From contig JBEBBO010000008.1 of assembly GCA_041158345.1 (NCBI GenBank), forward strand, positions 841-64,840: a DNA stretch of 64,000 nt. Reading direction: 5' to 3'. How positions within the stretch are numbered: the stretch's first letter is position 1; each line of letters opens with the position of its first letter. The stretch is from Pseudomonadota bacterium. GTDB taxonomy: Bacteria > Pseudomonadota > Gammaproteobacteria > Methylococcales > Methylococcaceae. Shown in pieces: positions 23,969 to 42,534 of this stretch. The translations under genes and the position numbers were made by a program. The notes beneath the pieces were generated by a model, which was given only the letters and a program-made list of their open reading frames with translations, did not search any database and had not been told where the DNA came from.

Positions 23969-24074
23969 GACGCGGAATATAGCCTGTGCTAACTATTCAG
24001 GCAACCGCTCTCCGGATCGAAGAGTTCGCTATGCCTCCCCGCCCCGAAGGACGGGGTTTCTCGCGAGATTAACG

Positions 24075-24335
24075 TTGAAAAATCTTTTTGTGGGCAATCG
24101 CAGTTACGCCAGCGACAATCAACAGTTGCACGCGCTTTTCTCACCATTCGGCCAAGTTCAGTCGGCGAATGTGGTCATGGATCGGGTGACGGGCCAATCC
24201 AAAGGCTTTGGATTTGTCGCCATGGCGGAGAACGAAGCCAAAACCGCTATCAGTGAACTGCATGGGAAAGAAATTCAGGGGCGCCCCTTAACGGTGAATG
24301 AAGCAAAACCCAGGGGAGTCACCGGGACCGGCTAA
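24075..24335 (+). CDS. RRM-type RNA-binding protein (paralog 1, TTG start, atypical RNP2)
   Basis: RNP2-like LFVGNRSY and RNP1 KGFGFVAM, 86 aa. The TTG at 24075 sits directly at the IS end, and the upstream in-frame part of track ORF 23955-24335 reads through IS sequence. Confidence 0.7.
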   Translation: MKNLFVGNRSYASDNQQLHALFSPFGQVQSANVVMDRVTGQSKGFGFVAMAENEAKTAISELHGKEIQGRPLTVNEAKPRGVTGTG

Positions 24336-24723
24336 ACCTAACTCCTCAGGAAGTGATGGGTCAGACTCGGGTTTTTCTCGCCGGAATCAGGCGCTGGGCC
24401 ATTAGTATGCCGGTCATGGCTTATTTGAAAGGTAATCCCGAAGGGATCACTGAATCTCAGAGTTGACCGCTTATTTGTCCCTGTCTCTCACGATTTTTAG
24501 ATGATAGGAAAACTACTTCCGTGGTTTTACCAAGTACCCAAACGGGGTTTTTCCAGTGCGGTTCGGTCACGTACCGTCCCTTACCGCTTTTTGGAGGGAA
24601 ACGGCGTACTTGGCAGGTATCCCCAGATCCACCCATTCGTTTTTCATAAAAAATCTATACAAATCTTCATCTAACCTTAATGCGTCAATCATCACTATTG
24701 ATGATTCGAAGCGATAGACTGCT

Positions 24724-25476
24724 ATGGTCTCCTTTCAGCTTCAGAGATTTAGAGACTATCAGGGGGAATCCATGCCATCTCAAGATCAAGGGGCGAAGTT
24801 ACTCGCTCTAATCGCCCATGAAATTCGGAGCCCTCTATCGGTCATCACGAATACCGCTCAGCTTCTGAATATGAACGAAGACGCCACGCCAGAAGAGCGG
24901 GCGTGTTACGAGCTCATCATGAGACAAGCCCGTCAAATTGACGACACAGCAAATACCCTGATTTCAATTTCCAGAATCAAGCTGGGAAAGGATCCCATTC
25001 CACGCGATGACTTTCTCTTGTGCGAGCAATTGTTCGAGGTCATCGAGTCGAGTCGCCATCTTTTTGAAAAAAAGTCGATGCGTGTTCGCTTGGAGACGCC
25101 CCCCCATGCGACCACTGTCTCTGGATCAAAGATTCTGTTTAAGCAGGCCATGATTAACCTGCTAAACAACGCCTTGAAATTCAGCCCTTCAAATAGCAAC
25201 GTTCATGTCAATGTCAGCCAGGAGAATGAGCGGGTTGTGGTCTCCGTCAAGGACGAGGGGCGTGGGTTAGACCCGAATGAAACACGGTCCCTGTTTTCCC
25301 TGTATGTACAATCTGGAGACAACTCAAATCGTTCAGGGCTCGGAATGGGCCTCTACCTTGTGAAGAAGATCGCCCGCCTCCATGGGGGCGGTGTATCAGT
25401 ATCGTCTGAGGGCCATGGCAAGGGTTGTGACTTTCGACTATGGCTTCCGATTTCGGACTCTACCCTGATGGCTTAA
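24724..25476 (+). CDS. transmitter-only histidine kinase (HisKA + HATPase_c, no sensor or TM domains)
   Basis: H-box LIAHEIRSPLSVI, N-box LLNNALKFSP, G1 DEGRGL, G2 GLGMGLYLVKKIARLHGG. An alternative start at ATG 24772 is preceded by GGGGGA. Confidence 0.85.
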   Translation: MVSFQLQRFRDYQGESMPSQDQGAKLLALIAHEIRSPLSVITNTAQLLNMNEDATPEERACYELIMRQARQIDDTANTLISISRIKLGKDPIPRDDFLLCEQLFEVIESSRHLFEKKSMRVRLETPPHATTVSGSKILFKQAMINLLNNALKFSPSNSNVHVNVSQENERVVVSVKDEGRGLDPNETRSLFSLYVQSGDNSNRSGLGMGLYLVKKIARLHGGGVSVSSEGHGKGCDFRLWLPISDSTLMA

Positions 25477-25618
25477 GTTTCCAGGCTGCAGTCACTGGTA
25501 TGCAATTGTCCTGATATCACGCTATCCAGTTTTCGGGGAATATGCTTCGGGTGACTCTAGCCCCAAGATCGGCTTGGATGATTTATTCAGAATTTAAAGC
25601 ATCAGGACATAGACCAGC

Positions 25619-25933
25619 ATGAAGAACCTCTATATAGGCAACCTCATTTACGGCATCGACAGTCAAAAACTAAAGGCGCTGTTCACGTCGTTCGGGCCAG
25701 TCAAATCTGCGAGTGTCGTCATTGACCGGGATACCGGCCGTTCCAAAGGGTGTGGCTTTGTCGAGATGGGAGCCACTGAGGCCAGTGCTGCCATATTGGC
25801 GCTTAACGGCAAAGAGTTTGAGAGTCGTGCTCTAAGGGTCAACAAGGCGAAACCACGTGAGACAACCAAGACCCGAGGAATTAGCCCTTTGGGGAGAGAT
25901 CGATTTGAGGCGGGACCCTCGCGAGGATTCTAG
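25619..25933 (+). CDS. RRM-type RNA-binding protein (paralog 2)
   Basis: RNP2 LYIGNLIY and RNP1 KGCGFVEM, followed by a short R/G-containing tail. Confidence 0.9.
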   Translation: MKNLYIGNLIYGIDSQKLKALFTSFGPVKSASVVIDRDTGRSKGCGFVEMGATEASAAILALNGKEFESRALRVNKAKPRETTKTRGISPLGRDRFEAGPSRGF

Positions 25934-26264
25934 GAGTCGTTCCTTATCCTTGCGATACCAATCGCATAACCAAAGTGCCCATTGCGTCGCCGATGATGCG
26001 CACTGAGCCTACGTAGCCTTTTCCTAGGCTAACCTTGTGAATCAAGATTCCATTCAGTCCTTCCGTGCGATGGTATAAATCACATTTACCTGAATACCTT
26101 CTAATCGAGCAATCTTCATGAGCTTCAAATTAAGCTCTTGCACCTTGCGTTGAGTCTCGGCATCGGGCTTCTCCATTGTGACCCGATAACCCGAACCAAT
26201 GACGCGAGATTCAAACGATGCCGTTCAGTCGCTTGAGGTTCGACAGGTCATCCATATTGTCTAA

Positions 26265-26291
26265 ACGACGGGGTTTCTCGCGAGGTTCACG
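26265..26291 (-). repeat. solo copy of the IS end motif (ACGACGGGGTTTCTCGCGAGGTTCACG)
   Basis: Direct comparison with 24048-24074 and 32171-32197. A weaker partial copy (GCGAGATTCAAACGATG) lies at 26204-26220. Confidence 0.45.
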
Positions 26292-26327
26292 ATGAAGCCA
26301 TCTGAAGTACTTGCTCTGAATTGAGCA

Positions 26328-26456
26328 TCAAGGACCATCATCGATATCATCGGGTTCGATCTCAGACACATGGGTCAATTCAAGGGTAAATTCTTCAAAC
26401 TTCACTTCATCTTCATGATCCAGGGATTCATAAGCCGATTTAATTGAATGAGTCAT
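26328..26456 (-). CDS. hypothetical acidic micro-protein (42 aa)
   Basis: Hand translation gives MTHSIKSAYESLDHEDEVKFEEFTLELTHVSEIEPDDIDDGP*, with AGGAGAG 6 nt upstream of the ATG. Confidence 0.25.
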   Translation of the reverse strand: MTHSIKSAYESLDHEDEVKFEEFTLELTHVSEIEPDDIDDGP

Positions 26457-26549
26457 TGGGTCTCTCCTAAGATTCGGATCGCATCCTCAGCATAGGACCC
26501 CAATTCAGTAAGAAGGTTGCGAGTCATCACCGACTCCTCGATCCTTCCC

Positions 26550-26900
26550 TTAAAGCTGGGAAGTTTTATCCGTATAGCACCGCATCACCAGCCGAAACTC
26601 TCGTTCGAAATTCCGTGGCGCATAGGGTGATATAGCATGGAGCGGATCAAGTATTTGAAGCAGCGCTGCGTCAAAGCAGACACCCGGTGAAATGGATTCT
26701 CCCGTCGCTATCTTCATGAGGGTGGCCAACGCCACTTCTCGATCTTCAGATAGTCGAATCGCTTTAAAGAAGATGACCTGATCATGCGCAAGCTGATCGA
26801 ATCGTTCCGCAAGGGAGAATGCACAGTAGGTAAACCATTCCGAGGACTCGGGGCTGGTCGGTGGGTCTTTACGTCGGAGTAGCGATTTCAGGAATCCCAT
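26550..26900 (-). CDS. hypothetical protein
   Basis: Track ORF. The ATG at 26900 (MGFLKSLL...) is used in place of the TTG at 26906. No family recognised. Confidence 0.4.
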   Translation of the reverse strand: MGFLKSLLRRKDPPTSPESSEWFTYCAFSLAERFDQLAHDQVIFFKAIRLSEDREVALATLMKIATGESISPGVCFDAALLQILDPLHAISPYAPRNFEREFRLVMRCYTDKTSQL

Positions 26901-27161
26901 ACACAAATTTTTCTGAAAAAAAATTCAACTTCAAAGTGACCGCATGGGGCGAGTTTTGAGCAAAAGGCGCAACCTAGGGGCAAGGATTCCTCATGGACGC
27001 CAACTCGTCACCCGTTCGTTGGGCTATAAACGCAACTTTCGCATTCTGCTGAACCACAGGGGAACATTTTCAATCCTCAGACTGACAAAGTGAGGCGCCT
27101 TCGGATGGATTGGATCCCAAGGTAATACCTTTGTCACTGGTGTATCAGAGTCTCGCTGTTT

Positions 27162-27455
27162 ATGAAAACCCTTTATGTCACCAACCTCAGTTATCTGATC
27201 GACGATCTCAGACTGCGTCAGATTTTCTCACCATTTGGTGAAGTCCTCTCGGCCAAGATCATTATGGACCGGGAAACTGGGCGGTCTAGAGGGTTTGGCT
27301 TTGTCGAAATGCAATCCGAAGCCGCAGACTCCGCCACGAAAGGGATGAACGGTAAAGAAGTTGAAGGCCGTGTGCTGACAGTCACTGAAGCGAGACCGAG
27401 GGGCCAAGCCAAAAATCATGCCCAATATGGCGGACGAGACCGGGCAATACCCTGA
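27162..27455 (+). CDS. RRM-type RNA-binding protein (paralog 3)
   Basis: RNP2 LYVTNLSY and RNP1 RGFGFVEM. Confidence 0.9.
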   Translation: MKTLYVTNLSYLIDDLRLRQIFSPFGEVLSAKIIMDRETGRSRGFGFVEMQSEAADSATKGMNGKEVEGRVLTVTEARPRGQAKNHAQYGGRDRAIP

Positions 27456-27510
27456 CTCGGCTTAATCGTTGAGATCAGTACCAAAGCATATCTGGTTGAG
27501 GTATCCCATC

Positions 27511-27810
27511 ATGGGCGAGAAAGACATTTATTTAGAGCGGCTCAGTGAACAGCTTGACGGCTGGAAAGCAGAAATCCTGGCGCTTGAGATGAAGGCCGAG
27601 ACCGGAGGAGACGAAGTCAAAGCAAGTTGCGAGGAAGCCTTGAGCGAATTGAAGAATGTCTACGAGGCAACCCAGGCAAATGTAGGAGTTTGGATCGAAT
27701 CAGCGGATGACTCCTGGGAAGTACTTGAGGCAAATGTGGAGGGGCATATCGAATCCGCTACCTCAGCGCTCAAGAGTGCAATCCAGCATATGAAGACCCT
27801 TATCGGTTAG
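27511..27810 (+). CDS. coiled-coil hypothetical protein (99 aa)
   Basis: The ATG at 27511 is 55 nt after the RRM gene stop. The sequence is helical and E/A/L-rich (LERLSEQLDGWKAEILALEMKAE...). Confidence 0.5.
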   Translation: MGEKDIYLERLSEQLDGWKAEILALEMKAETGGDEVKASCEEALSELKNVYEATQANVGVWIESADDSWEVLEANVEGHIESATSALKSAIQHMKTLIG

Positions 27811-27830
27811 GACAGCGATGGGAAGCCGAT

Positions 27831-28025
27831 TTAGGCGGCAGCCATGCTCTCAGACCTTTCTATAAAGCCGGCTAACCAGCTATAGGCTTCTGCTGAACCC
27901 AGTGGATATGGGTTATCAAAGGTACTTCCCCCTTTGGAGGCCCATTTCATGCCCTCATACCTTGCGATCTGATTGATCTGGACAACGACAGCCCTGTCGG
28001 AAGATGACGTCATTGAATGTTTCAT
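27831..28025 (-). CDS. Rmf/CrpP-like small protein (tentative)
   Basis: EGMKWASKGGSTFDNPYPLGSAEAYSWLAGF has the same G-x14-PY spacing as E. coli RMF (RGYQAGIAGRSKEMCPYQTLNQRSQWLGGW, from memory). The WL.G(F/W) motif is also present, but with one extra residue between PY and WL. Confidence 0.4.
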   Translation of the reverse strand: MKHSMTSSSDRAVVVQINQIARYEGMKWASKGGSTFDNPYPLGSAEAYSWLAGFIERSESMAAA

Positions 28026-28157
28026 ACGTTAGATCCGCTCTAGATATTCCGGGTGGACCCCCGGTCCGACGTTAAACCGTAACAATGAGAGTAGACCGCT
28101 ACTTTCAGAGAAAGTTTTGTTTTCAACGAATAGTTCGGCGCAACTTCTCTGCACCGC

Positions 28158-28433
28158 CTATTTCGGAGTGCTGAAGGGCCAGCTCATCCGGCTGAGGACG
28201 CCATCACGGGCACATTCAAGCGTTTCAAAGCTGCGGCCCGTCTCAAAGACCCGATCATCCAGATCGTATAGGTGATATCTAAAACTCGAACTCTCCATGA
28301 AAAGGGGTTCGTTAGCAGGGGTTGAAACGTCAAAAGAAACGAGAAAGTCCTTTCCTATACGGTAGATTTTATGGACTCGAATTTCAGTCCCTTGATCCAG
28401 GACATCGAACTGCTTCAGGGCGTCTCTCATCAA
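28158..28433 (-). CDS. hypothetical protein (91 aa)
   Basis: Track ORF only. Confidence 0.35.
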   Translation of the reverse strand: MMRDALKQFDVLDQGTEIRVHKIYRIGKDFLVSFDVSTPANEPLFMESSSFRYHLYDLDDRVFETGRSFETLECARDGVLSRMSWPFSTPK

Positions 28434-28848
28434 ATATCTCTGCGTTTATCTCGTGGAAGGTCGGAAATCCTAGTGGATCAGACCCCTGCCGACCAATCAG
28501 TATTTTCCACATAAATCATAAGGATTTCTAGGGGTGCCGATCAAAACACAGATTTTGCCTCTGGCTGGCTACCTCCCCGCGTGGGTTTAATCGGTCTCAC
28601 GCCCTTTTTGGTAAGGATTTCTTTTGCAATCGATTCTCAGTAGCATTCGGAATCTGGCACAACAACATCCTGCTGAATGCCAGTTGACCGATTAAAAGAA
28701 TAAAAACGTGGTCACGCAAATGCCCTCCTCTGAAAAACCCTTGCTGAATGAGAACACAGCAATCCCCTTTGACGCGCTGCCCATGAATCGTCAGTAATGC
28801 TCTTCAAAGATCACACACCCGGAGATCTCAATGAAAAAAGATCAGGCA

Positions 28849-28878
28849 CTGATTTACTCTGATTTACTCTGATTTACA
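28849..28878 (+). repeat. three tandem copies of a 10-bp unit (CTGATTTACT, last copy ...ACA)
   Basis: Read directly. The repeat ends 13 nt upstream of the ATG at 28892. Confidence 0.9.
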
Positions 28879-28891
28879 GACAACCTTCGCG

Positions 28892-29086
28892 ATGGATGGC
28901 CATACTCTTGAGATTATTATTTATCGATTGCCAGATAGCGACTGGACCCTTGAGGTGGTCGATGAAAACAACAACTCAACAGTCTGGGAAGACACATTTG
29001 CCACGGACGAAGCTGCCCTTGCAGAAGCCATTGGCGAGATAAAATCTGAAGGCGTGCATGCCTTTATGGGTCCACATTCTGCATAA
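28892..29086 (+). CDS. hypothetical acidic protein (64 aa)
   Basis: Track ORF with no obvious RBS. Confidence 0.3.
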   Translation: MDGHTLEIIIYRLPDSDWTLEVVDENNNSTVWEDTFATDEAALAEAIGEIKSEGVHAFMGPHSA

Positions 29087-29194
29087 TGTCAGGTTAGAAC
29101 GGTTGTAACCTTGGGAAAGTGCCCCTTCGTTGTTCGAGCCTACCCCAACCGTTCCGCTGAAACATAAAAACGACTAGAAAAATGAGGTAAAGGT

Positions 29195-29941
29195 ATGTGC
29201 TGGAGTGGAGAGGCGTCGGCCGTATTGGCGACAATTGGTTTTGGTACGGCTGCGTACATTGCATACAAGGGCGAGTCCAAGGATCTCTGGATCCCTCTGA
29301 CATACTTTGCCTGCATGGAACTTCTCCAGGCAGCGACCTATGTCTATATCAACCTATGTGACAGTCCACCCAACCAGATATTAACGTACTTCGGTTACAT
29401 ACATATTGCCTTCCAACCCTTCTTTGTGAACATGGTCGCGATGTATTTCATCCCCCAGAGCGTCAAGGAAAGGATCAGCACCGTCGTCTATACGCTTTGC
29501 GCCGTTGGAGCGCTGGGCATGTTGGTCAAAATGTATCCCTTTAACTGGGCGGATCATTGTGTTGTCGGATTAGAGGCCTTCTGTGGATCGCAGGCATGCT
29601 CCGTTTCTGGGGATTGGCATATTGCCTGGCAGTTGCCGCTGAACGGTATCCAGTACGACCTGTCCTACCTGATCCCGAACTACTTCCTGGGTCTTCATGG
29701 TCTCTCGTATATCCTGGTGGGGTTTGTCCTTCCCGTTGTCTATGGATCATGGCGTTTTGTCTTGTTCCACATCTTCATGGGACCAATCCTGTCGATCCTG
29801 ACGACCCGTGACCCCAATGAATATGCCGCAGTGTGGTGCCTATTCTCGATCGCACTGTGCCTGTCAGTGATCAAGTCACCCATCAGACGCCATCTCCACG
29901 TCGTTAGTTGGCCCTACTATTCAAGACTGGCCAAGGCCTGA
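29195..29941 (+). CDS. polytopic membrane protein of unknown function
   Basis: About 7 hydrophobic segments. The N-terminus is MCWSGEASAVLATIGFG, and GAGGTAAAGGT lies upstream of the ATG. Confidence 0.6.
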   Translation: MCWSGEASAVLATIGFGTAAYIAYKGESKDLWIPLTYFACMELLQAATYVYINLCDSPPNQILTYFGYIHIAFQPFFVNMVAMYFIPQSVKERISTVVYTLCAVGALGMLVKMYPFNWADHCVVGLEAFCGSQACSVSGDWHIAWQLPLNGIQYDLSYLIPNYFLGLHGLSYILVGFVLPVVYGSWRFVLFHIFMGPILSILTTRDPNEYAAVWCLFSIALCLSVIKSPIRRHLHVVSWPYYSRLAKA

Positions 29942-30073
29942 TCAACGGCTCACTCACCTGTGCGATACTCGGTTGAATTCGCGACAGTTTTGACCAACAA
30001 TGTTTTGATCAAAGCTCTAGCCGAGTTCATGTTTGCTCTACGGTGAGGGCATCGCCCCTCACCCTGAGCAAAG

Positions 30074-31348: not shown

Positions 31349-31941
31349 GCCCCCCGAGGATCCACCCAGTGGATTCTCCCCTGACTTTCCCGGGTCAACT
31401 GGGTCACAATCTCTGCTAGCCGGTCCTTGGGTCCCTGAATGATCACCCGCAATTCCATGCTACGCTCGACACTCAACAGGATTACGCCATCCTTGTTTAT
31501 CCGGTTTCTGAAGAGTCCCTCAAGAGGATACGGTACGAGACAGGCCAGGGTATCCAAAGGCACGAGGGTGACCTTGGTTGCAGTTTTGAGCGCTTGTGCC
31601 ACTGCATCCGTGTAGGCACGAACCAAGCCGCCAGCACCCAGATTAATCCCGCCGTAGTAGCGAACAACCGTCGCCAGAACACCTTCCAGATTTTGGTGGC
31701 GCAGCACTTCTAACATCGGGCGGCCTGCAGTTCCACTGGGCTCCCCATCATCGACAGCGGCAGAATGCCCTCCTGCCATGAGCGCCCAACAGACATGGGA
31801 TGCAGTGGGGTGTTGTTGCTGGATTCTTGCGACCTGCCTGACCGCATCAGCGCGATCTGAAACCGGCTGAACCTGTCCAAGAAAACGGCTCTTCTTGATG
31901 ATGAGTTCACTGGTCGAGGGACCTTCTAGGGTCAAAGTCAT
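31345..31941 (-). CDS. yigZ: YigZ/IMPACT-family protein (UPF0029)
   Basis: IKKSRFLGQV..., HVCWA..., DDGEPSGTAG.PML and VVRYYGG..LG.GGL are typical of the family. Confidence 0.85.
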   Translation of the reverse strand: MTLTLEGPSTSELIIKKSRFLGQVQPVSDRADAVRQVARIQQQHPTASHVCWALMAGGHSAAVDDGEPSGTAGRPMLEVLRHQNLEGVLATVVRYYGGINLGAGGLVRAYTDAVAQALKTATKVTLVPLDTLACLVPYPLEGLFRNRINKDGVILLSVERSMELRVIIQGPKDRLAEIVTQLTRESQGRIHWVDPRGA

Positions 31942-31954
31942 GATCGGTTCGCGA

Positions 31955-32197
31955 CAGATGAGTGGGATGCGCCCAATGCAAACTGAGCGCGAAGACGTCT
32001 CAACTGAATCAGGTTGGGGTTACTGAAAAAGACTCGCCATTTGATATTCAAATCCCTTCGCTTCCTCCCCTTCCAAAAGGAAGGGGATTCCTGGTTCATC
32101 GAGAACTGCTTAAGCCGATTTACGACACAGGACTGACATTCTCTCCACAGGCTAACACCGCCAGCCCTAAAGGACGGGGTTTCTCGCAAGATTCACG
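31955..32197 (-). mobile_element. MITE-like internal-deletion derivative of the tnpB element (both ends, no tnpB)
   Basis: 32068-32165 aligns with 22786-22885 (tnpB 3' end plus downstream hairpin) at roughly 80% identity by eye. It is joined directly to the left-end motif GACGGGGTTTCTCGCAAGATTCACG (32172-32197). The left boundary is approximate. Confidence 0.55.
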
Positions 32198-32386
32198 ATG
32201 AGATAGACCGCGGCTCGTCGGGTATCGATGGAAACGAGTTCAAGGATCCTCTAGAGATCCAGCGGTTCGCGACGGTATTGCATCTATCGGCGGAGACTAC
32301 TACGCTTCAACGAAAAATCCAGCCCTCTTAGCGAATCGCATAGAGATCGGAACCCGTGCCCTCCATCATGAAGAATATGCCGTCCT

Positions 32387-33025: not shown

Positions 33026-33071
33026 CCCATTCAAGCGCGATCACGGCACACCCCGTCAGGAGAACCTCATC

Positions 33072-34004: not shown

Positions 34005-34029
34005 ACAGACGACGACAGGGGCTTTGGAA

Positions 34030-34185: not shown

Positions 34186-34310
34186 AACCACCCCCTGAAT
34201 CCGATGGCCCATAGGTTCAGTCCACAGACCACGCAAGAACCACTAAACCGTTTATACCATTATAACGGTTATGACCCTTTAAGTCCACGGGAGTTCCTAC
34301 GCAGAACCCC

Positions 34311-37300
34311 CTATTTTTCATTTACTTGAAGCGCGAGGGGCATTAAAAGATGGTGACCATCGTCGGATGATTGCTCCTGTATGTCGCCTAGGCGAACTCG
34401 TTGACTATCCACCGGTTTGGGAACCGCCGAAAGTGCCGCTTTGACAACCCGCATCCGACGATCAGCCAATTCTTTCAGTTCATTGGCACCAATGGGGGCT
34501 TGATCAGCCAGATTTTGAGCCAGCAACTCATAAAAATCAGGCGTTTTACTCCCCTTTCCCATCAGCGTTCCGACTAGGCCAATCCGGTCTACAGGATGGC
34601 CTTTATCAGCAACATAACGCGTCAAGGCGACTTCAAGCAGTCGGTATTCCTGAGCCAAAGCCTCCAGCACTCGCTGTGTGGCGGCCTCAGTCGGATTAAC
34701 AGGATCAGGATCTTCCCCGGGTTTTAACGCTTCACCCAAACGAGAAGCAACCCGCTGCCTCAGCCAGAAGTGGCGCAATGCAACCTTATCCTTTTCTGGA
34801 TCAAAACTGCCATTCAGGATTAATTGAAGTTGGGGCTTTAAGTGGAGCGCATCCGACAATCGCACAATTTTTTCCTTTTCAGGCGGCGTCAACACATCAC
34901 TTCCAAGATCGAATGCAATTGCATTGAGTTCCTCACCGCCACTCAGCCCCAGAGCCCCGGTGATTGCAGTAAATGGCGATAAAACAGCCTTTTTGATGAG
35001 GTTTCCAAACGCATTCAGAAACACCACACCATAATCAAAATCAGGGGCATCCGTCTTTCCTTCGATGGGCAGTGACATATCGATATTGCCCTCTGCATCC
35101 GACAAGAGGGCCACAGCAAGATCCAGCGGCAGTGAAACAGCCTTTGGACTCTCGACCTTGTCACCTAATCGAAGTTGCTTGAGATAAATCCGGTTATCGC
35201 TCTTGAGTTGCTGTTCTTCCAGTCGGTAATGTGCGTTGAGATCCAGCTTGCCGTTTTCAATGCGCCGACCTGCAAAGGTTGCGCTATAGGGTGTGAGCGA
35301 TGCCAGAACCACATTTTCAAAATGAAGATCGACATCCAGCAATGATTTGGGATCAAGCGGTCTGAGTTGGCCATGAATCGAAGCTTCGCCATAGGGTGCA
35401 ATTCGTCCATTAAGTTCCAATAACGACTTCCCATTCGGATCCAGGGTCCAGCCCGTAATCGCACCCTTGAGGTCAACAATCTGGGTTGAAAAGGGCAGGA
35501 TGAGTGTTTCGTCCGTGTAATCAAGCTTGCCACCTTCGACCCGGATCCTCCGAATATGAATGTCGGGGTCTGGCGTTGTCGGTGCATTGGATCCGGGTCG
35601 GCGCGGGGACGGAACACGATCAATGGGCTTTGCCACCCGCAACTCTGAAAGATTAGAGCTTTTATCTGCGTGAATCGCGATGACCCCATCGGGATCCTGA
35701 AGCCGAATCTCATTGGCCGAAAACTCAAAGGGATTTAGACGACCCTTGATACCGTCCACCGTCAGGGATTGCCATCCCAAAAGCTTACGATCATTCGGTG
35801 CCTGGGTGAGCCGAAGGTTATCAAGGCCTATGAGACCGGAGTAGTCACCCGTCGGAACGCCACTTTCGATGCGCAGCGCCACTTTCAGCTGACTTGATAG
35901 ATAGCCCTCGACAGTATCGAAACGATACGACTCGGCAAGCAACGATTTAAAGGGGGCCAAACCGACTTGATCCAGGCGAACTTCACCCGTGAAGGCCATC
36001 TCACTCGGCTGGAGTTGGCCGTTGAGACCAACCTTTCCTCCCGATGACACCTCTGATGAAAGCACCATAGGTGTTTCTCCAGGGCGTTGCGTGTCGATTG
36101 ACCCCAGCGAAAGACGCGTGTGTTTGAACTCGAAGGGATCAGAGTTCAGGCCAGAAACCCGAACGACCCCCACAGAAAGATCCGAAACCTGTGTTTGATT
36201 AATCCCAATCGTCCAAGGCGTTGACGTCGTGTCGCCCACCGCACGCGTTGGGCTACTCGAACTCGTTTGAGGTACCAGAGCGTCCAACGGCAAGACTGCG
36301 TCCTGACCCAGCCCAAAGAGGATGACGGATGCATCGAGGTTCAGTGAATTTGCAACCAGGCGTCTGGCCCCCAAATCGACCACTATCGCCTCCCCTTCAA
36401 GGGAGCCCACTCGGATATCGGGCTGGTGCAGGGAGGGAGCCATGGGGTTCTGGATCAAATGCAAGTCGCTGAGCTTGACCTGATCGAGTCCAATCCGCCA
36501 GGGGCTATCCGGTGTCTTCGACACGGTGGCCTCGGTGAGGGATTGGCTGCTTGAACGGGACTGCGGCGGAAACAGTGCACGCCATCCAGGTTGTCCCTGC
36601 CCATCCTTCACACCAATCAAACCCAGGGACTTCAGCTCAAATCCATGGAGATCCAATCGATGCTGCGACAGATCCAGTTGTGCATCGTCGACAACCATTT
36701 GCTGAAGGGTAAGCAAAGGGAGATCAACTTGAGGACGGGATAGACGGAGATCCCGAAGCATCAAATGGGCATGCGCCATTTGAAATTGGGGCTCAGGCAG
36801 CTGCATGAATCTGAAATCAGAGGAAAAATCCAACAAGCCCTCGAACGTCGGTAAATCCATGGAGGGCGGCAATTGCGTCTGAAGTTCAGAAAGATTCAAG
36901 CCGCGGGCTTCGGCCGAAAAATGACTGTCAGACCCATCAGCCAGGAAACCCCCCTCAGCATGCACGGTTGCCCCAGGGTCCATCTGAAAGTAGAGGTTGA
37001 AAGAGCCCTCGGAGGCATCTAAGGTTTGGAGATTTACGACGTCCAGCGCCACAGCATGCAGGTTGACGGGTTGCCCATTTTCGAAGGGAGCGAACCGGAT
37101 CTTTCCATCCTCTACTTGGAAATTTGCCACGATCATCCTAAGGGGGGATGAATCTTCATCCGAGGCAGTCGCTGGCTGCCGTGATCGAAACCCCTCAAGT
37201 AGTTGATCCAGGTTCGAGGCGTGATCCCCATGGGCATGAATGTCGATGTTCGGGTCTGACACCGTGATGGCATCCATCGCCAACGCGCGATGGCGGAGCG

Positions 37301-37628
37301 AGCGGAGCAATCCAAAGTCAAAATCGAATTGTTTGACATCGAGAAGAGCATCTTCGGATGAAGCGCCAAGGACGACGCCTTCCAGTCGGAGTTTGAGTTC
37401 AAAAGGATTCCAGTGGATGCCTGTCACTGAAAGACTGGCGCCCGTTTGGGTCGTGATCGCTGGGAGAACCCTTTGGCGAATAAGGAGAGGAACAAGGGGT
37501 GTGGTGACCACTCCGTAAAGGACAAGGACTAGGAGAATTCGACGGATCGGTGACCGAACAAAGAAGTGCGAAACCCAGCCAAGATGGGTAAGAAAGGATT
37601 TCATTTCAGTCCACATTGACCCATTCAA
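34311..37628 (-). CDS. DUF748 domain-containing (AsmA-like) large envelope protein
   Basis: N-terminal TM anchor and a long beta-rich body. The C-terminal region is typical of DUF748 (GGKLDYTDETLILPF...LTPYSATFAGRRIENGKLDL...LPLDLAVALLSDAEGNIDMSLPIEGK.DAPDF). The start is ambiguous among TTG 37628 and ATG 37616 or 37604. Confidence 0.7.
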   Translation of the reverse strand: MNGSMWTEMKSFLTHLGWVSHFFVRSPIRRILLVLVLYGVVTTPLVPLLIRQRVLPAITTQTGASLSVTGIHWNPFELKLRLEGVVLGASSEDALLDVKQFDFDFGLLRSLRHRALAMDAITVSDPNIDIHAHGDHASNLDQLLEGFRSRQPATASDEDSSPLRMIVANFQVEDGKIRFAPFENGQPVNLHAVALDVVNLQTLDASEGSFNLYFQMDPGATVHAEGGFLADGSDSHFSAEARGLNLSELQTQLPPSMDLPTFEGLLDFSSDFRFMQLPEPQFQMAHAHLMLRDLRLSRPQVDLPLLTLQQMVVDDAQLDLSQHRLDLHGFELKSLGLIGVKDGQGQPGWRALFPPQSRSSSQSLTEATVSKTPDSPWRIGLDQVKLSDLHLIQNPMAPSLHQPDIRVGSLEGEAIVVDLGARRLVANSLNLDASVILFGLGQDAVLPLDALVPQTSSSSPTRAVGDTTSTPWTIGINQTQVSDLSVGVVRVSGLNSDPFEFKHTRLSLGSIDTQRPGETPMVLSSEVSSGGKVGLNGQLQPSEMAFTGEVRLDQVGLAPFKSLLAESYRFDTVEGYLSSQLKVALRIESGVPTGDYSGLIGLDNLRLTQAPNDRKLLGWQSLTVDGIKGRLNPFEFSANEIRLQDPDGVIAIHADKSSNLSELRVAKPIDRVPSPRRPGSNAPTTPDPDIHIRRIRVEGGKLDYTDETLILPFSTQIVDLKGAITGWTLDPNGKSLLELNGRIAPYGEASIHGQLRPLDPKSLLDVDLHFENVVLASLTPYSATFAGRRIENGKLDLNAHYRLEEQQLKSDNRIYLKQLRLGDKVESPKAVSLPLDLAVALLSDAEGNIDMSLPIEGKTDAPDFDYGVVFLNAFGNLIKKAVLSPFTAITGALGLSGGEELNAIAFDLGSDVLTPPEKEKIVRLSDALHLKPQLQLILNGSFDPEKDKVALRHFWLRQRVASRLGEALKPGEDPDPVNPTEAATQRVLEALAQEYRLLEVALTRYVADKGHPVDRIGLVGTLMGKGSKTPDFYELLAQNLADQAPIGANELKELADRRMRVVKAALSAVPKPVDSQRVRLGDIQEQSSDDGHHLLMPLALQVNEK

Positions 37629-37733
37629 AGGAAAACCCTAGTTGAAGTCCTGTTTTGCATCCTGTCAAGGAAGACAGGGGCGGCATGCGTTGGATTCCAA
37701 AGAAGGCGCTGTTATGCCTAAGACCCCAATCCA

Positions 37734-38801
37734 TTATTCCGCCTTGTCGGATACTTCACTGTCGATGAAGGAGTTCCACGCATGATAAAGAATGGACAGA
37801 ATGCAGGGCCCGAGAAAAATTCCTGCAAGACCGAAACTTAAAATGCCTCCGATGACGCCCAGAATCATCAAAAGTATGGGGCTGTGCATCAACTTGCCGA
37901 TAACCCAAGGCCGAAGGAGATTATCCGCAGGATGCACAATGAGAAGCCCCCAAAGCACCAGACCCACGGCTTGTGGAAGTTGATTCTCAGAGATGAAGGC
38001 AAAGACCAGAGGGCCCCAGACCAAAGAGGCTCCAAGGACCGGAACCAGTGAAGCAATGACCGACAGCAAGCCCAGTAGCAAAGGGGTTTTGACACCAAAA
38101 ATCAGGTAACCGCAGGTCGCAATGAATCCCTGGAGCAACGCCCCCCCCATGATGCCTAGACTGACTGCATAGACGGTGGCATGAATGATCCCGAAATAAA
38201 CCGGGACATCAACAATACCCATACGCATCAATCCACGCTGAAGACGATCCGTGATGCAATGCCCATCTCGGATGAAAAAATAGAGGGCAACAACCATCGT
38301 GAAGAGTTGTAGCATCTGATCTGAAAGCCCGATCACCAGATGTTTGAGCGAGCGACCCATGATCGGGATCAGATTCTTGATCACACCCATCAGTTCATGG
38401 GCTTCTCTGGGGAAGGCTTGCAACACATCAACCAGCATTGGGCCAAGAAGCGGTATGCGGTTGACGATTGCCTTAAGCGCCCCGTACTGCTGCGAAAAAT
38501 CGATGGAAAGCCATTGATAGGCGAGCGACGCTTCATCCTGTAGCGTAAGCATAAGCCAGCCGACCGGCCCGACCAGAACGAAAATCCAACCCAGGATCAT
38601 GGGGATGGGGATAAGCTGGGGATGGCGCGGAAATCGAGCGCTGAGCCCATGATGGATCGGCTTGCTCAATATAGCGAGGACACCAGCCCAAATCAGGGCC
38701 ACTCGAAATGGCCAGAGGACCACAGCCCCCATGGCGATCAAGACAAATCCGAGGCTGAGGCGCCCGGCGCTGATCCCGCCAAACCTAATCAAACGACTCA
38801 T
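37734..38801 (-). CDS. AI-2E family transporter (PerM/YhhT-like, UPF0118)
   Basis: Polytopic protein with the family-typical C-terminal half (VGLVLWGLLIV...DNLLRPWVIGK...HPILLMILGVIGGILSFGLAGIFLGP). I chose the ATG at 38801. Confidence 0.85.
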   Translation of the reverse strand: MSRLIRFGGISAGRLSLGFVLIAMGAVVLWPFRVALIWAGVLAILSKPIHHGLSARFPRHPQLIPIPMILGWIFVLVGPVGWLMLTLQDEASLAYQWLSIDFSQQYGALKAIVNRIPLLGPMLVDVLQAFPREAHELMGVIKNLIPIMGRSLKHLVIGLSDQMLQLFTMVVALYFFIRDGHCITDRLQRGLMRMGIVDVPVYFGIIHATVYAVSLGIMGGALLQGFIATCGYLIFGVKTPLLLGLLSVIASLVPVLGASLVWGPLVFAFISENQLPQAVGLVLWGLLIVHPADNLLRPWVIGKLMHSPILLMILGVIGGILSFGLAGIFLGPCILSILYHAWNSFIDSEVSDKAE

Positions 38802-38819
38802 ACCCGGGCCTGCTTTCCG

Positions 38820-41495
38820 ATGAAGAGAACTTCCAGTGTAGACATAGCGACAGTGGCCACGCAATTCGATGCGTCGCTAGAGGGTCTTTCAGAGCAGCAA
38901 GCACAGCAGTTGGTCAAATCGATCGGGAAAAATGCTTTACCCCAGACGCAAACCCGCAGATTCTGGAACATCCTTCTTCCCGTCATTAAGGAACCCATGC
39001 TAGCCCTCCTCCTGGGATGTGGCACGATCTACTACGTTCTGGGGGAACCCCAAGAGGCCTTGGTTCTGTTGGCTTTTGTGGTGATCGTCATCCTGATTAC
39101 GCTTTATCAGGAGGTTAAAAGCGAGAGAGCGCTGGAGGCACTGCGCGATCTTTCGAGCCCTAAAGCCTGGGTCATCAGGGACGGCATGAAACTGCAGATC
39201 CAAAGCCAGGATTTGGTTCCAGGCGATCTGATGATGATCGCTGAAGGCGATCGGATTTGTGCCGATGGTACCGTCCTTCAAGGATCGCATCTTGCAGTCG
39301 ATGAGTCCTTACTGACCGGTGAGTCCGTTCCCGTTCGCAAGAGGGCATGGCAACTCGACGCCCTATCACGGACTCCTGGGGGGGATGATCAACCGGAGGT
39401 TTACTCTGGAACGCTGGTGGTCTCCGGGCATGGACTGGTGCGCGTCACCGGAACCGGAATCTCGACGGCATTGGGGAAAATCGGGGCGAGCCTCAACGCG
39501 ATCCAGGAGTCGCAAACCGCACTCCAAAAGGAGACGGGCTGGTGGGTAGGCCGACTGACCTTCTTTGGTCTCGGTCTTTGTCTCGTGGTGACGATCAGCC
39601 TCGGTTTGATGCACCAGGATTGGCTTGGGGGCATTCTCTCCGGTTTGACCTTGGCTATGGCCGTGTTACCGGAGGAGTTTCCCCTTGTGCTGACAATTTT
39701 TTTGGCCATGGGGGCATTCAGGCTTGCACGGGTCAAGGTGCTGACCCGACGCAACCAAACGATTGAAACGCTCGGTTCAGCGACGGTCATCTGTACCGAC
39801 AAGACCGGAACACTGACCGAAAACCGGATGCAGCTTCGCAGTTTGTGCATCAATGGCCAGTTTGCAGACTGCCTTGTTCGTGATCAGCCGATCCCCGAAA
39901 CCCACCACCGGCTAATAGAGACCGCATTATTGGCCAGTCAGAGGGATCCCTTTGATCCCATGGAGCGCGAGCTATTTGCGGTCGGTAGAACGCATGCAGC
40001 AGATCATGTCCATGACGCCTGGCGACTTGAAAAGCAGTATCCGCTGACCCGTGAATTGCTTGCGATGTCCTGTGTCTGGACCGCGGAGGCCGATAGTCAG
40101 GAATTCATTGTTGCGACCAAAGGCGCTCCCGAAGCCGTCATGGATCTTTGTCACCTGGGAAGCGGAGAAGCCGCTGCCATTCGCCGCGACATCAACCGAA
40201 TGGCCGAAAAAGGGCTGCGTGTGCTTGGGGTTGCGCGGACCCATGCGCAAACACTTCCAATCATTCAGCACGACTTTCCATTTGAATTTGCGGGCCTGAT
40301 CGGGTTCATGGATCCGATTCGGGAACAGGTACCCGCTGCGATCCGGCTGTGCCAATCTGCAGGAATCCGCATCGTGATGATGACGGGCGACTATCCGATC
40401 ACCGCCCAGCAGATCGGCCAAGACATTGGATTGTCCCAAGGGCGGATTGTCACGGGCGATGAACTGGAACAGATGTCGGAGCAAGCCCTCCGATTGGCCC
40501 TTCCTTCAATCAGTATCTTCGCCCGCGTGGTGCCAGAACAAAAGCTCAAAATCATCCAAAGTCTCCAGGCGTGTGGCGAAATCGTCGCCATGACCGGCGA
40601 TGGGGTCAACGATGCGCCGGCCCTCAAGGCCGCTAATATCGGGATTGCAATGGGTCTTCGTGGCACGGATGTGGCCCGCGAAGCATCGGACCTCGTCCTA
40701 CTGAATGATGCCTTTGATGCCATAGTCGAAGGCATTCGGATGGGCCGCAGGATTTTTGATAATCTTCGAAAGGCGATGGCCTACATCATTGCGGTCCACC
40801 TGCCTATCGCCGGAATCAGTCTGCTCCCCCTCCTGTTGGAATCGGCGACCCACCATGTCTGGCCCAGTGTCTTGATGCCCATTCATATCGTATTTCTCGA
40901 ATTAATCATTGATCCGGCATGCACCATCGTGTTCGAAGTGGAGCCTGATGAGAAGGGCATCATGAACCGCGCACCCCGCCCCGCTGGCGCAGGCATTTTT
41001 TCTGCAAAAGTCCTGAGACTATCCATCACGCAAGGACTGCTAGGGCTGGTGAGCAGCGCGACGGTCTATTGCTACGCCGTCCTGAGTGGTCTTGAAGAGG
41101 ATGCCGTCAGGAGCGTGACATTTGCCAACCTGGTCTTCGTTAATCTGGCGCTGTTATGGGTCAACCGTTCCTGGAATGCCAGCTTTATCGATTCACTGAG
41201 GGTCAGAAATTCGGCCTTGTGGTGGGTCATGGGAGGAACCTTGAGCACGTTGACTGTCGCCTTAATGATGCCCAAAGCCCAGACCCTTTTTCATTTTCAG
41301 CCGGCTTCCAACGAGAGCTTCGTTCTGGCCTTTGTGGCCTCTGCCCTCTCCGTCGCTTGGTTTGAAGTCTACAAGGCGATCGGCCGTTATCGACAGCGTA
41401 ACCCCGTGCGGCCGCATAAGGCTTCACCGCTGAAGTTCCATTCGCAAAGAGCAGGCATGAGAAAAAAGAATCGCAAACGGCGCCATCGACGTTGA
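38820..41495 (+). CDS. cation-transporting P-type ATPase (P2-like, HAD-IC)
   Basis: Cation_ATPase_N-like start (LSEQQAQQLVKSIGKNALP), TGES, PEEFP, DKTGTLTEN, MMTGD and GDGVNDAPALKAANIGIAMG. I chose the ATG at 38820, because the upstream part of the track ORF is antisense to the transporter gene. Confidence 0.9.
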   Translation: MKRTSSVDIATVATQFDASLEGLSEQQAQQLVKSIGKNALPQTQTRRFWNILLPVIKEPMLALLLGCGTIYYVLGEPQEALVLLAFVVIVILITLYQEVKSERALEALRDLSSPKAWVIRDGMKLQIQSQDLVPGDLMMIAEGDRICADGTVLQGSHLAVDESLLTGESVPVRKRAWQLDALSRTPGGDDQPEVYSGTLVVSGHGLVRVTGTGISTALGKIGASLNAIQESQTALQKETGWWVGRLTFFGLGLCLVVTISLGLMHQDWLGGILSGLTLAMAVLPEEFPLVLTIFLAMGAFRLARVKVLTRRNQTIETLGSATVICTDKTGTLTENRMQLRSLCINGQFADCLVRDQPIPETHHRLIETALLASQRDPFDPMERELFAVGRTHAADHVHDAWRLEKQYPLTRELLAMSCVWTAEADSQEFIVATKGAPEAVMDLCHLGSGEAAAIRRDINRMAEKGLRVLGVARTHAQTLPIIQHDFPFEFAGLIGFMDPIREQVPAAIRLCQSAGIRIVMMTGDYPITAQQIGQDIGLSQGRIVTGDELEQMSEQALRLALPSISIFARVVPEQKLKIIQSLQACGEIVAMTGDGVNDAPALKAANIGIAMGLRGTDVAREASDLVLLNDAFDAIVEGIRMGRRIFDNLRKAMAYIIAVHLPIAGISLLPLLLESATHHVWPSVLMPIHIVFLELIIDPACTIVFEVEPDEKGIMNRAPRPAGAGIFSAKVLRLSITQGLLGLVSSATVYCYAVLSGLEEDAVRSVTFANLVFVNLALLWVNRSWNASFIDSLRVRNSALWWVMGGTLSTLTVALMMPKAQTLFHFQPASNESFVLAFVASALSVAWFEVYKAIGRYRQRNPVRPHKASPLKFHSQRAGMRKKNRKRRHRR

Positions 41496-41870
41496 ATCAT
41501 CTATGGAACTACCGAATTCTGATGGCGAAAATATCCACAGCGGGGTATGATATGTCGTTCTCCAAAAGGAGGGATCCTTTTCGCGAGAGTTAGTCACAGC
41601 TTCTCCCTCCCCGCGCGATCACAACCATCAGCTACTGGCTGAGAACGCCAAGGGTACCCCAGATTTTTCGTCGAACTGGTGGTACTGGAATCGCTGATAT
41701 CAGCAATCAATCGTCTTCCCTCGTGTTCTGACGAACCACGATTGGCGTGGGTCACGTATCTTGCGTTGAGTCTTTTCAGAGGCTCCGCTCGATATGGCAT
41801 CACACACTCATTTACGGTCTGAACGGCAAAGACCCGTCCATGGCCAAGCTACCCGTGAGGTCCCTCTAAA

Positions 41871-42134
41871 ATGATCAGGCTACGTGTTGGGAATCTGCCC
41901 AGCGACATGAACGAAAAAGAATTCAATGAACTGTTCGCGGAATTTGGCCGCGTGTTCAATTATGAGCTCACCCGTGACATCTTCACCGGCCGTTGCCGTG
42001 GTTTTGGATTTGTCGACATGGAAGGTCACGAAGCCCGGGCAGCAATTGCCGGACTGAATGGCAAGACTGTGAAGGGAAATAGCCTCCGGGTTGGCGAAGA
42101 ACGCGCCCGCAGTGGCCGCGGCGGCCGGCGATAA
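41871..42134 (+). CDS. RRM-type RNA-binding protein (paralog 4, divergent, RGG tail)
   Basis: RNP2-like LRVGNLPS, RNP1 RGFGFVDM, and C-terminal SGRGGRR. Confidence 0.85.
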   Translation: MIRLRVGNLPSDMNEKEFNELFAEFGRVFNYELTRDIFTGRCRGFGFVDMEGHEARAAIAGLNGKTVKGNSLRVGEERARSGRGGRR

Positions 42135-42195
42135 GGCTGCGTCGATCCGTCCCGAGCCACCCGGCAAATCCCGAATCATCTATTTAGGTAAAAAT

Positions 42196-42507
42196 ATGGC
42201 CAAGAATTTATACGTTAGTAACTTAAGCTATGGCGTTGATACGCAACAACTCCAGGAGATCTTCGAAGCTTACGGCGAAATCCAGTCGGCCAAGGTCATC
42301 ATGGATCGAGATACGGGTCGTTCCAGAGGTTTTGGCTTTGTCGAAATGACCTCTGATGCAGACGCCAACTCAGCCATCTCCGCACTCAACGGCAAAGAAG
42401 TCGATGGACGCGCGATGATTGTGAACGAGGCTCGCCCTCGCGAAGAAGGTGGTTCCAACGCGTTTGGTGCCGGTCGACCCCGCCCAGGTGCGAATCGTCG
42501 CTATTGA
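42196..42507 (+). CDS. RRM-type RNA-binding protein (paralog 5)
   Basis: The ATG at 42196 lies within track ORF 42091-42507. RNP2 LYVSNLSY and RNP1 RGFGFVEM. Confidence 0.9.
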   Translation: MAKNLYVSNLSYGVDTQQLQEIFEAYGEIQSAKVIMDRDTGRSRGFGFVEMTSDADANSAISALNGKEVDGRAMIVNEARPREEGGSNAFGAGRPRPGANRRY

Positions 42508-42534
42508 TCGTCCTTTAGAACCTTCAGGGACAAC

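Follow-up and report, generated by a model that had tools for sequence, protein, structure and literature searches.

Five RRM-type RNA-binding protein genes within 18 kb of a Methylococcaceae genome: a conserved tandem pair and three fast-evolving paralogs, probably brought near each other by rearrangement

Five genes for small proteins that each contain one RNA recognition motif (RRM) lie within 18.4 kb of one contig of a Methylococcaceae genome, which raises the question of whether they work as one stress-related locus, as an earlier note on this DNA had proposed, or are neighbors by history. The window (the whole stretch analyzed, 64,000 nt; assembly GCA_041158345.1, contig JBEBBO010000008.1, positions 841 to 64,840) is contig C8 of G000, a draft metagenome-assembled genome (MAG) of 2.15 Mb in 195 contigs that is 95.6% complete. 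The comparison set comprised 41 genomes of the order, 20 from the genus (G000 and 19 congeners) and 21 others; the closest relatives of G000 are G004, G009, G012, G015 and G018. Bacterial RRM proteins have received little study, and to our knowledge most of the work concerns cyanobacteria, Bacteroides, one protein of Acinetobacter and one of Vibrio. The locus belongs to the known bacterial Rbp (RRM-1) family and is not a new kind of system. The reading that we favor, with a probability of roughly 0.7, is that it is a composite of one conserved Rbp pair and three fast-evolving paralogs, brought near each other by rearrangement, and not a new regulon.

The five open reading frames (ORFs), RRM1 (24075-24335), RRM2 (25619-25933), RRM3 (27162-27455), RRM4 (41871-42134) and RRM5 (42196-42507), all on the plus strand, each match the full RRM_1 domain (PF00076; 64.6, 67.7, 72.0, 64.8 and 84.8 bits, respectively, against a cut-off of 20.7; model positions 1-68/70). 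They are real Rbp-type RRM genes and clearly diverged paralogs, and their RNP1 motifs and differing C-terminal tails are as the earlier note described. The RNP1 octamer ([RK]-G-[FY]-[GA]-[FY]-[ILV]-x-[FY/M], with both aromatic residues) fits RRM1 (KGFGFVAM), RRM3 (RGFGFVEM), RRM4 (RGFGFVDM) and RRM5 (RGFGFVEM) but not RRM2 (KGCGFVEM). The RNP2 hexamer ([ILV]-[FY]-[ILV]-x-N-L) fits RRM2 (LYIGNL), RRM3 (LYVTNL) and RRM5 (LYVSNL), with deviations in RRM1 (LFVGNR) and RRM4 (LRVGNL, in which the aromatic residue is replaced by arginine). The start codon is TTG in RRM1 and ATG in the other four. The Rbp_regulator model NF058537 (cut-off 100 bits) is passed by RRM5 (125.4), RRM3 (102.6) and RRM6, a further gene on contig C88, and not by RRM1 (97.9), RRM2 (94.5) or RRM4 (65.1).

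G000 thus has six RRM_1 genes in total, five in the window and one on contig C88. By rough arithmetic the chance of random placement of five genes within 18.4 kb of 2.15 Mb is about 1e-7; if the tandem pair RRM4-RRM5 and the RRM1-RRM3 group are each taken as one unit, the 14-kb gap between them is marginally unusual (order 0.01-0.05). All 19 congeners searched carry RRM genes (1-6, median 3), sister genera with 4-5 Mb genomes have up to 7-8, and the copies in these relatives sit on separate contigs, the recurrent tandem pair excepted. Six copies is at the top of the range of the genus, yet not exceptional for the family. The density that had been remarked upon is non-random, with five of six genes in 18.4 kb, but the number of genes is ordinary for these relatives: similar counts, dispersed over the genome, had been named beforehand as the observation that would tell against an unusual number, and this is largely what the congeners and sister genera display. 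The sixth gene (RRM6, G000:C88:7037-7363, locus L002) is solitary, lies upstream of two PqiA-like membrane protein genes, and encodes a protein with a glycine-rich RGG tail that is identical to a G012 protein. A further Rbp orthogroup ('MKNIYVGNLSFKTTQDEL') is present in 15 congeners and was not found in the 95.6% complete G000.

The conserved part of the locus is the pair RRM4-RRM5, which, as had been observed, is in tandem with 61 nt between the genes. The tandem recurs in 13-14 of the 19 congeners and in G020, G021, G024 (twice) and G030, which stand for three sister genera and a further family of the order. In a maximum-likelihood tree of 93 RRM proteins from the 41 genomes, RRM4 falls within a clade (support 100/100) whose 27 upstream-of-tandem copies come from the genus, its family and a second family of the order. 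In G004, G009, G015 and G018, the RRM4 protein is identical or differs by one residue (99%), and the RRM5 orthologs are 92-96% identical; with dN/dS ratios of 0.01 for RRM4 and 0.01-0.02 for RRM5, both genes are under very strong purifying selection. No terminator was found between RRM4 and RRM5, and the Shine-Dalgarno sequence of RRM5 (AGGT, 7-nt spacer) is the best of the five genes. Downstream of RRM5 is a bidirectional intrinsic terminator (42535-42560, AAAAAGGCCGC-ATTA-GCGGCCTTTTT) shared with a convergent gnd gene. This terminator was missed by a consensus scan: its A/T runs lengthen the stem, leaving no free T tail.

The gene at 41871, RRM4, had been singled out as the most divergent of the five, which is correct within this genome (36-45% domain identity to the others), but it is also the most deeply conserved copy. 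A profile of the RRM4 clade, run against 185,579 species genomes, retrieved 80 loci, the gammaproteobacterial ones of which include members of the Nevskiales, Competibacteraceae, Chromatiales, Sedimenticola, Granulosicoccaceae and Acidiferrobacterales. Across gammaproteobacterial orders the type shares the hallmark D[VI]F[ST]G.C[KR]GFGF[IV]EMEGHEARAAI followed by a short basic tail, and among the loci of the scan the tandem with a canonical copy occurs in Methylococcaceae loci only. The change of the RNP2 aromatic residue to arginine is found in the subclade of G000, farther orthologs keeping Y or F. An AlphaFold2 model of RRM4 built from a 28-sequence alignment predicts the canonical b1a1b2b3a2b4 fold (strands 2-7, 28-35, 42-50 and 73-76; helices 15-23 and 52-62) with a disordered tail, at a mean predicted local distance difference test score of 86.3. 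Judged by its relatives, RRM4 is a deeply conserved orthogroup and not an outlier. One sub-branch of the RRM4 type ('MLTLFVRGLPP...'; G021:C364, C312 and C40, and G024:C16; loci L068-L070 and L075) is itself divergent, with 100/100 support, a branch length of 0.94 and an RNP1 motif that has neither aromatic residue (RG[IVT]ATVNM); in G021 its genes lie directly behind canonical cspA genes.

Upstream of RRM4, a -10 box (TATGAT, 41546-41551) and a leader of about 313 nt (together 41543-41870, plus strand) are conserved in relatives. From the -10 box to the RRM4 start, about 320 nt are 88-92% identical in G004, G009, G012, G015 and G018, while in the same comparisons 29-39% of the synonymous sites of RRM4 differ (dS 0.37-0.55) and the neighboring genes are 68-81% identical. 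Core motifs of the leader are also found in the more distant G014, and a 1-nt indel shows that the sequence is non-coding. The leader is single-copy in the genus and absent from genomes that retain a helicase gene upstream of RRM4. It matched no Rfam family. Its minimum free energy z-score of -1.6 indicates that it folds modestly better than shuffled sequence, and an RNAalifold consensus of 42 pairs has a covariation term near 0, with compensatory changes from G014 alone; because of this modest z-score and thin covariation, we describe it as a conserved long 5' leader by its sequence and claim no fold for it. A long-range pairing in G000, between the 5' end of the leader and the stretch that follows the Shine-Dalgarno sequence, was dropped, as it is not conserved in G018, and a derivation of the leader from that of the helicase gene was rejected, since the motifs occur upstream of RRM4 only and nowhere near helicase genes. 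RRM4 and RRM5 most likely share one transcript, driven by a promoter near 41546 and beginning with a 5' untranslated region (UTR) of about 313 nt.

Gene neighborhoods connect the RRM4 type with cold shock, and here the link to stress that had been supposed does exist, tied to cspA or DEAD-box helicase genes across Gammaproteobacteria. The upstream neighbors of the 80 RRM4-type loci were sought by targeted tblastn with one helicase and one Csp query sequence: 30 of them have a cspA-type gene on the same strand, 80-314 nt upstream, and 15 have a DEAD-box (RhlE-like) helicase gene immediately upstream on the same strand, so that one or the other is present in 45 of the 80. The order helicase, RRM4, RRM5 is found in 10 congeners and in G021, G024 and G030. 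In the subclade of G000, a P-type ATPase gene is upstream of RRM4 instead, and a helicase ortholog (71% identity) is on contig C155 of G000. Each of the 20 genomes of the genus has one weak match to a cold-shock domain (29-51 bits) inside an open frame of approximately 180-295 aa (in G000, C34:1554-1724), and no canonical CspA gene of about 70 aa was found in these 20 MAGs. Canonical CspA proteins number 1-4 in 15 of the 21 other genomes of the order, where six of the csp genes, all from other families, directly precede an RRM gene. By orthology and gene neighborhood, the RRM4-RRM5 operon is most likely a cold- or stress-related RNA-chaperone system.

Parallels for such an arrangement are known from another phylum. 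In Bacteroides thetaiotaomicron, rbpB is co-transcribed with a DEAD-box helicase gene and the gene of the sole cold-shock protein (CSP), most Bacteroides genomes have approximately three redundant rbp genes, and these genes, induced by cold and required for growth at low temperature, autoregulate and have long 5' UTRs (PMC13370968; 10.1101/2021.04.27.441718). RbpA, RbpB and RbpC of Bacteroides (PMC13370968, PMC11697453) are likewise small single-RRM proteins with a short disordered tail; their usual three paralogs per genome compare with the median of 3 in the genus of G000, and the tie of one paralog to a DEAD-box helicase and a cold-shock gene compares, by orthology, with the RRM4 type. Long 5' leaders and few or no canonical CSPs in the organism are further points in common. 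Unlike the Bacteroides system, the ancestral helicase link has been lost in G000, and of its six RRM proteins only RRM5, RRM3 and RRM6 pass the Rbp_regulator model, RRM4 (65 bits), RRM1 and RRM2 staying below it. A tandem of two RRM types behind one leader and the pairing of an RRM gene with an sll1863-family gene, discussed below, are not described for Bacteroides. For the genes considered here, a cold phenotype, RNA binding and autoregulation are predictions drawn from sequence.

The cyanobacterial Rbps (Synechocystis Rbp2 and Rbp3, PMC12232666) also consist of a single RRM with or without a glycine-rich tail and form multigene families. They are induced by cold or other stress in organisms without CspA-type proteins. 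The difference is that here the organism is a gammaproteobacterium and the proteins have no thylakoid mRNA-targeting role. The Rbp genes of Anabaena are cold-induced. The partner gene of RRM3 comes from a family that takes its name from Sll1863, a cyanobacterial stress protein, and we know of no report of sll1863 beside rbp genes in Synechocystis. Among Gammaproteobacteria, AB-Elavl of Acinetobacter baumannii (PDB 7QZP; PMC9313427) is a single-RRM protein of solved structure with demonstrated RNA binding, encoded 74 bp from an ATP-dependent helicase gene (PMC9313427), a neighborhood that resembles that of the RRM4 type in most Methylococcaceae. Its sequence is nearer to the canonical copies (E = 2.8e-14 versus RRM5, 6.9e-10 versus RRM4), and unlike RRM4-RRM5 it occurs once and without a tandem partner. 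The cspA gene of E. coli, as cited within PMC13370968, is a small RNA-chaperone gene whose long 5' UTR is a thermosensor; the leader of RRM4-RRM5 is also long and conserved, and RRM4-type genes are directly downstream of cspA in the 30 loci mentioned above. The folds are unrelated, however (OB fold versus RRM), and the leader here has neither an Rfam match nor demonstrated alternative structures.

The other three genes have a different history. RRM1, RRM2 and RRM3 and their relatives constitute an Rbp subtype, labeled X-type, that nests with the RRM5-type lineage (support 95/89). RRM1-RRM3 are 49-57% identical to each other in the protein domain and 64-65% in the DNA of the shared core. The phylogenetic check for lineage-specific duplication that the earlier note had called for was carried out, with a focused tree (n=33) that includes metagenome relatives. 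RRM2 has orthologs on metagenome contigs that are 87% and 68% identical, the former pairing supported 100/99, RRM3 forms clades with orthologs of G012 and G015 (100/95; 98/98), on a long branch, and a clade of RRM1 with RRM2 was rejected (approximately unbiased (AU) test, p = 0.02). Because RRM2 and RRM3 have closer orthologs elsewhere and RRM1 and RRM2 do not group together, the three genes are, by phylogeny, older sub-lineages and not recent in-paralogs. In the focused tree, their terminal branches (0.47, 0.14 and 0.39 for RRM1, RRM2 and RRM3) are at least 20 times those of their nearest relatives (0.016, 0.006 and 0.014); the range for RRM3 is 0.34-0.39. The metagenome contig L157 (Logan SRR35908934, 20 kb) carries, on one strand and amid small ORFs, a pair of 104-aa X-type RRM genes that are 81% identical and separated by 2.6 kb; after them comes a response regulator with 42% identity to window positions 15043-15417. 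L157 shows that local pairs of X-type RRM genes arise repeatedly.

Of the three X-type genes, at least RRM1 looks disabled and RRM2 degraded, which speaks against the assumption that all copies are functional. The TTG start codon of RRM1 abuts the end of an insertion sequence (IS) element (junction ...GAGATTAACG|TTGAAAAAT), with no Shine-Dalgarno sequence and no promoter-like site on the plus strand. The RNP2 motif of RRM1 reads NRS where relatives read NLS, and its tail ends after 86 aa, the +1 frame running on to '...SGFSRRN', comparable to the 'GPSRRF' tails of relatives; its nearest relative is a metagenome protein that is 71% identical. RRM2 has a dN/dS ratio of 0.32 versus its 87%-identical ortholog, and 11 of the 14 replacements are on the branch of G000, including F45C in RNP1, S10I and E76K. 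RRM2 scores 94.5 bits and this ortholog 101.8 with NF058537; RRM1 and RRM2 both lie just below a cut-off that their relatives pass. RRM3 has a tail without the terminal PSRRF of its orthologs. On these features RRM1 is probably inactive and RRM2 is probably weakened, under relaxed or altered selection, and the simplest reading of RRM1-RRM3 would be that, as redundant copies in an IS-ridden and decaying region, they are under relaxed constraint.

RRM3 is the first gene of a conserved pair. A gene for an sll1863-family stress response protein of 99 aa (27511-27810, plus strand; ATG at 27511) begins 55 nt after RRM3; the ORF from 27505 to 27810 scores 53.4 bits with NF052504 (cut-off 35; model positions 1-93). 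The pair is found in five of the six genomes of the genus that have an sll1863 gene (the others being G012, G014, G015 and G018) and on the metagenome contigs L172-L175, where the partners score 55.5-56.1 bits; an X-type gene followed by a conserved stress-protein gene is a second respect in which the proposed stress link is borne out. Sll1863 of Synechocystis is among the most strongly salt-induced and general-stress proteins, and its knockout gives no phenotype (PMC8670252). In G014, the canonical copy of the tandem pair has the sll1863 gene directly behind it, which suggests that RRM3 and its partner arose by duplication of a unit of an RRM5-type gene and an sll1863 gene. A gene for an Rmf/CrpP-like small protein of 64 aa (27831-28025, minus strand) follows; it has a sub-threshold score with Pfam RMF (PF04957, 16.5 bits versus 27.9) and no NCBIfam match, but homologs near X-type RRM genes score 30.6 (L156, above the cut-off), 24.6 (L172) and 16.4 bits (G015), and a profile of the four sequences matches E. 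coli RMF with an hhalign probability of 81%. Membership of this protein in the RMF superfamily is plausible but unproven. Two further ORFs, neither with a Pfam or NCBIfam match, accompany RRM3: a 118-aa ORF (26550-26906, minus strand) with homologs beside the RRM3 orthologs of G012 (55% identity) and G015 (43%), and a 91-aa ORF (ORF91; 28158-28433, minus strand) with a 60%-identical homolog in the same position on G015:C38 and DNA matches in G012 and G018.

The two groups of genes are close together in G000 only. Contig C14 of G015 is colinear with window positions 28.9-45.8 kb, and the block of RRM3, sll1863, Rmf-like gene and ORF91, which is syntenic in G015 and G012, is on another contig of G015. 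In G018, too, the RRM-sll1863 pair and the tandem pair are on separate contigs, and no RRM gene was found in the 15 kb beyond the syntenic block. Positions 1-28.8 kb of the window are otherwise largely unmatched at the DNA level in the five closest relatives. Conserved clustering and a single co-regulated locus are not supported: the paralogs have different histories, and the search for 5' UTR elements conserved across copies returned neither a shared leader nor an Rfam element. In blastn-short comparisons of 350 nt upstream of RRM1-RRM6 and their orthologs, no shared upstream sequence was detected, the only matches being that between RRM2 and its ortholog on L156 and the trivial overlap of the stretches taken for RRM4 and RRM5; sequence to the left of the IS element, a possible displaced leader of RRM1, had no match. 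Rfam gave no match over the window at the gathering threshold, and at E <= 1 it gave terminator-like noise after RRM5 only (weak leader-type matches that reflect the hairpin at 42535-42560), nothing in 23.9-29.2 kb and no Chlorobi-RRM-type motif.

These results bear on the proposal that the five paralogs, the kinase encoded between RRM1 and RRM2, the coiled-coil (sll1863-family) protein and the Rmf-like protein make up one stress regulon whose members are all active, sub-functionalized and co-regulated. All five ORFs are intact, the sll1863-family and Rmf-like genes are real recurrent neighbors of X-type genes, and the differing tails would be a plausible basis for sub-functionalization. We nevertheless consider such a regulon quite unlikely, there being no upstream sequence or Rfam element common to the genes, two groups that lie on separate contigs in G015 and G018, a kinase gene and RRM2 that lack DNA matches in the five closest relatives, an IS element that cuts RRM1 off from its native leader, and the loss of a core RNP1 aromatic residue from RRM2. 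That RRM1-RRM3 stem instead from a recent, lineage-specific tandem triplication of a unit of about 1.54 kb is hardly credible; the start-to-start spacing of their shared 103-nt core on the same strand (1544 and 1543 nt) speaks for it, but the three spacers have no homology by blastn or tblastx, the copies are as diverged as stated above, RRM2 and RRM3 are closer to orthologs in other organisms, the RRM1-RRM2 clade is rejected by the AU test, and the gene remnant behind RRM2 is orthologous to the neighbor of the RRM2 ortholog on L156. The even spacing of the conserved cores (24133-27322), with unrelated spacers, is apparently a coincidence.

A horizontally acquired island with foreign RRM genes would explain why the first 28.8 kb of the window are largely without DNA synteny in the closest relatives, have a GC content of 0.49-0.50 versus 0.52-0.57 and are flanked by IS copies. 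RRM1-RRM3, however, fall in a genus-level clade that also holds the RRM5 type, the RRM3 block described above, from RRM3 to ORF91, has synteny with G015 and G012, and the nearest database relatives belong to the RRM subtype of the congeners G014 and G018 and have the same tail motif, which makes a foreign origin very unlikely. Also unlikely is neofunctionalization of RRM1-RRM3 under positive or altered selection, for instance toward new RNA or protein partners, with the long branches reflecting adaptation. The ORFs are intact with dN/dS below 1, RRM3 is above the NF058537 cut-off and has kept its sll1863 partner, and the RNP2 change from Y to R in RRM4 demonstrates that very strong constraint can go together with the loss of an RNP aromatic residue. 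Against this, all three copies are accelerated together, and in G000 only, changes fall at otherwise invariant core positions, the leader of RRM1 and probably its tail are gone, and the surrounding IS ends and gene remnant are typical of decay.

The composite reading has evidence to contend with as well. In the window itself no helicase or csp gene adjoins RRM4, so that the cold-shock link applies to it by orthology only, and the structure of the leader is unproven given its z-score and the origin of the compensatory changes. RRM1-RRM3 are all open, with pairwise dN/dS ratios of 0.07-0.32 (below 1, dS being mostly saturated), and could be functional, fast-adapting proteins instead of decaying ones; errors of assembly or consensus could in principle account for F45C and the RRM1 tail. 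All of the genomes are MAGs, in which absence of canonical csp genes or of the 'MKNIYV...FKTTQDEL' Rbp type means that they were not found, and the same applies to contig-level synteny.

With these points weighed, the composite reading would work as follows. The five small single-RRM Rbp-type proteins would bind single-stranded RNA and act as chaperones. Unit A (41543-42560), consisting of the leader, RRM4, RRM5 and the terminator, would be the ancient core system, in which an orthogroup that normally stands behind a cspA or DEAD-box helicase gene is paired, in Methylococcaceae, with a canonical Rbp. The leader would probably confer temperature-dependent and/or autoregulatory control, judging from cspA and the rbp genes of Bacteroides, and in a genus without canonical CspA the RRM proteins would probably supply the RNA-chaperone function in cold or stress. 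Unit B (24075-27455) would contain older sub-lineages that, in part of the genus, split off from the RRM5-type lineage: RRM3, which retains its sll1863-family partner with the Rmf-like gene and the small conserved ORFs beside it, and the probably inactive RRM1 and probably weakened RRM2, set among a kinase fragment, ends of IS elements and the remnant of a gene. The 14-kb distance between the two units would result from genome-specific rearrangement or reduction and would not mark a functional super-cluster.

A broader interpretation, which we offer tentatively, joins these elements: in this genus without canonical CspA, the role of RNA chaperone in cold shock and stress may have passed to RRM proteins, with an undescribed RRM4 orthogroup, a thermosensor or autoregulatory leader and a ribosome-hibernation module. 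The RRM4 type (C[KR]GFGF[IV]EMEGHEARAAI, with a partly non-canonical RNP2) would then be an obligate partner of CspA or of an RhlE-type helicase, co-expressed here with a canonical Rbp under a new leader of about 313 nt, and the X-type RRM, sll1863-family and Rmf-like proteins would couple RNA binding to ribosome hibernation under stress. The orthogroup linked to csp and helicase genes extends the rbp-helicase-csp link of Bacteroides to another phylum. The genus, which apparently lost canonical CspA and kept 3-6 Rbp genes, parallels cyanobacteria and Bacteroides, and would be a natural test of the interchangeability of Rbp and Csp. The recurrent Rbp-Sll1863 pairing suggests a role connected with RNA or the ribosome for the enigmatic Sll1863, an abundant protein in Synechocystis, and the locus illustrates the decay of redundant Rbp paralogs. 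The leads worth following are the RRM4 orthogroup, the conserved leader, the genus without canonical CspA and the association of RRM, sll1863 and Rmf-like genes; the five-gene cluster itself is ordinary.

Of the neighbors interleaved with the RRM genes in the original proposal, the coiled-coil protein, identified as the sll1863-family protein, and the Rmf-like protein thus recur with RRM genes, but the kinase is unlinked. It is a transmitter-only histidine kinase (24724-25476, plus strand; HisKA and HATPase_c domains) with generic NCBIfam matches, including the KdpD C-terminus. Neither its gene nor RRM2 has a DNA match in G004, G009, G012, G015 or G018. As a member of an RRM system it was rejected, the matches being those of generic transmitters and the gene not being conserved with RRM genes, and on this evidence it is a neighbor and not part of the system. 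Downstream of RRM2, a methyltransferase gene remnant (26057-26215, minus strand) is 60% identical over 53 aa to an intact 272-aa methyltransferase behind the RRM2 ortholog on L156, and ends at solo copies of the IS end (26255-26295). No tRNA gene was found in the window. Positions 1-28800, which hold a kdp operon (kdpA 20240-22090) and have a slightly lower GC content, behave as a variable region bounded near 28.9 kb.

The IS element beside RRM1 is a tnpB-only element of the IS200/IS605 type (22778-24074, minus strand; TnpB-like ORF 22819-23889) whose left end abuts the RRM1 start. Its bounds were set from 86-88% DNA matches to whole copies in G018; near-full-length copies are present in G012 (76%) and G015 (75%), and G015 has many end fragments, often at contig ends. 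The end motif at 24038-24078 recurs at 26255-26295 and at 32161. Copies or ends of the element in the window are at 22778-24074, 26255-26295 and 31955-32200, and every left-end copy in the window is followed by [AT]TGA, which in one case is the start codon of RRM1.

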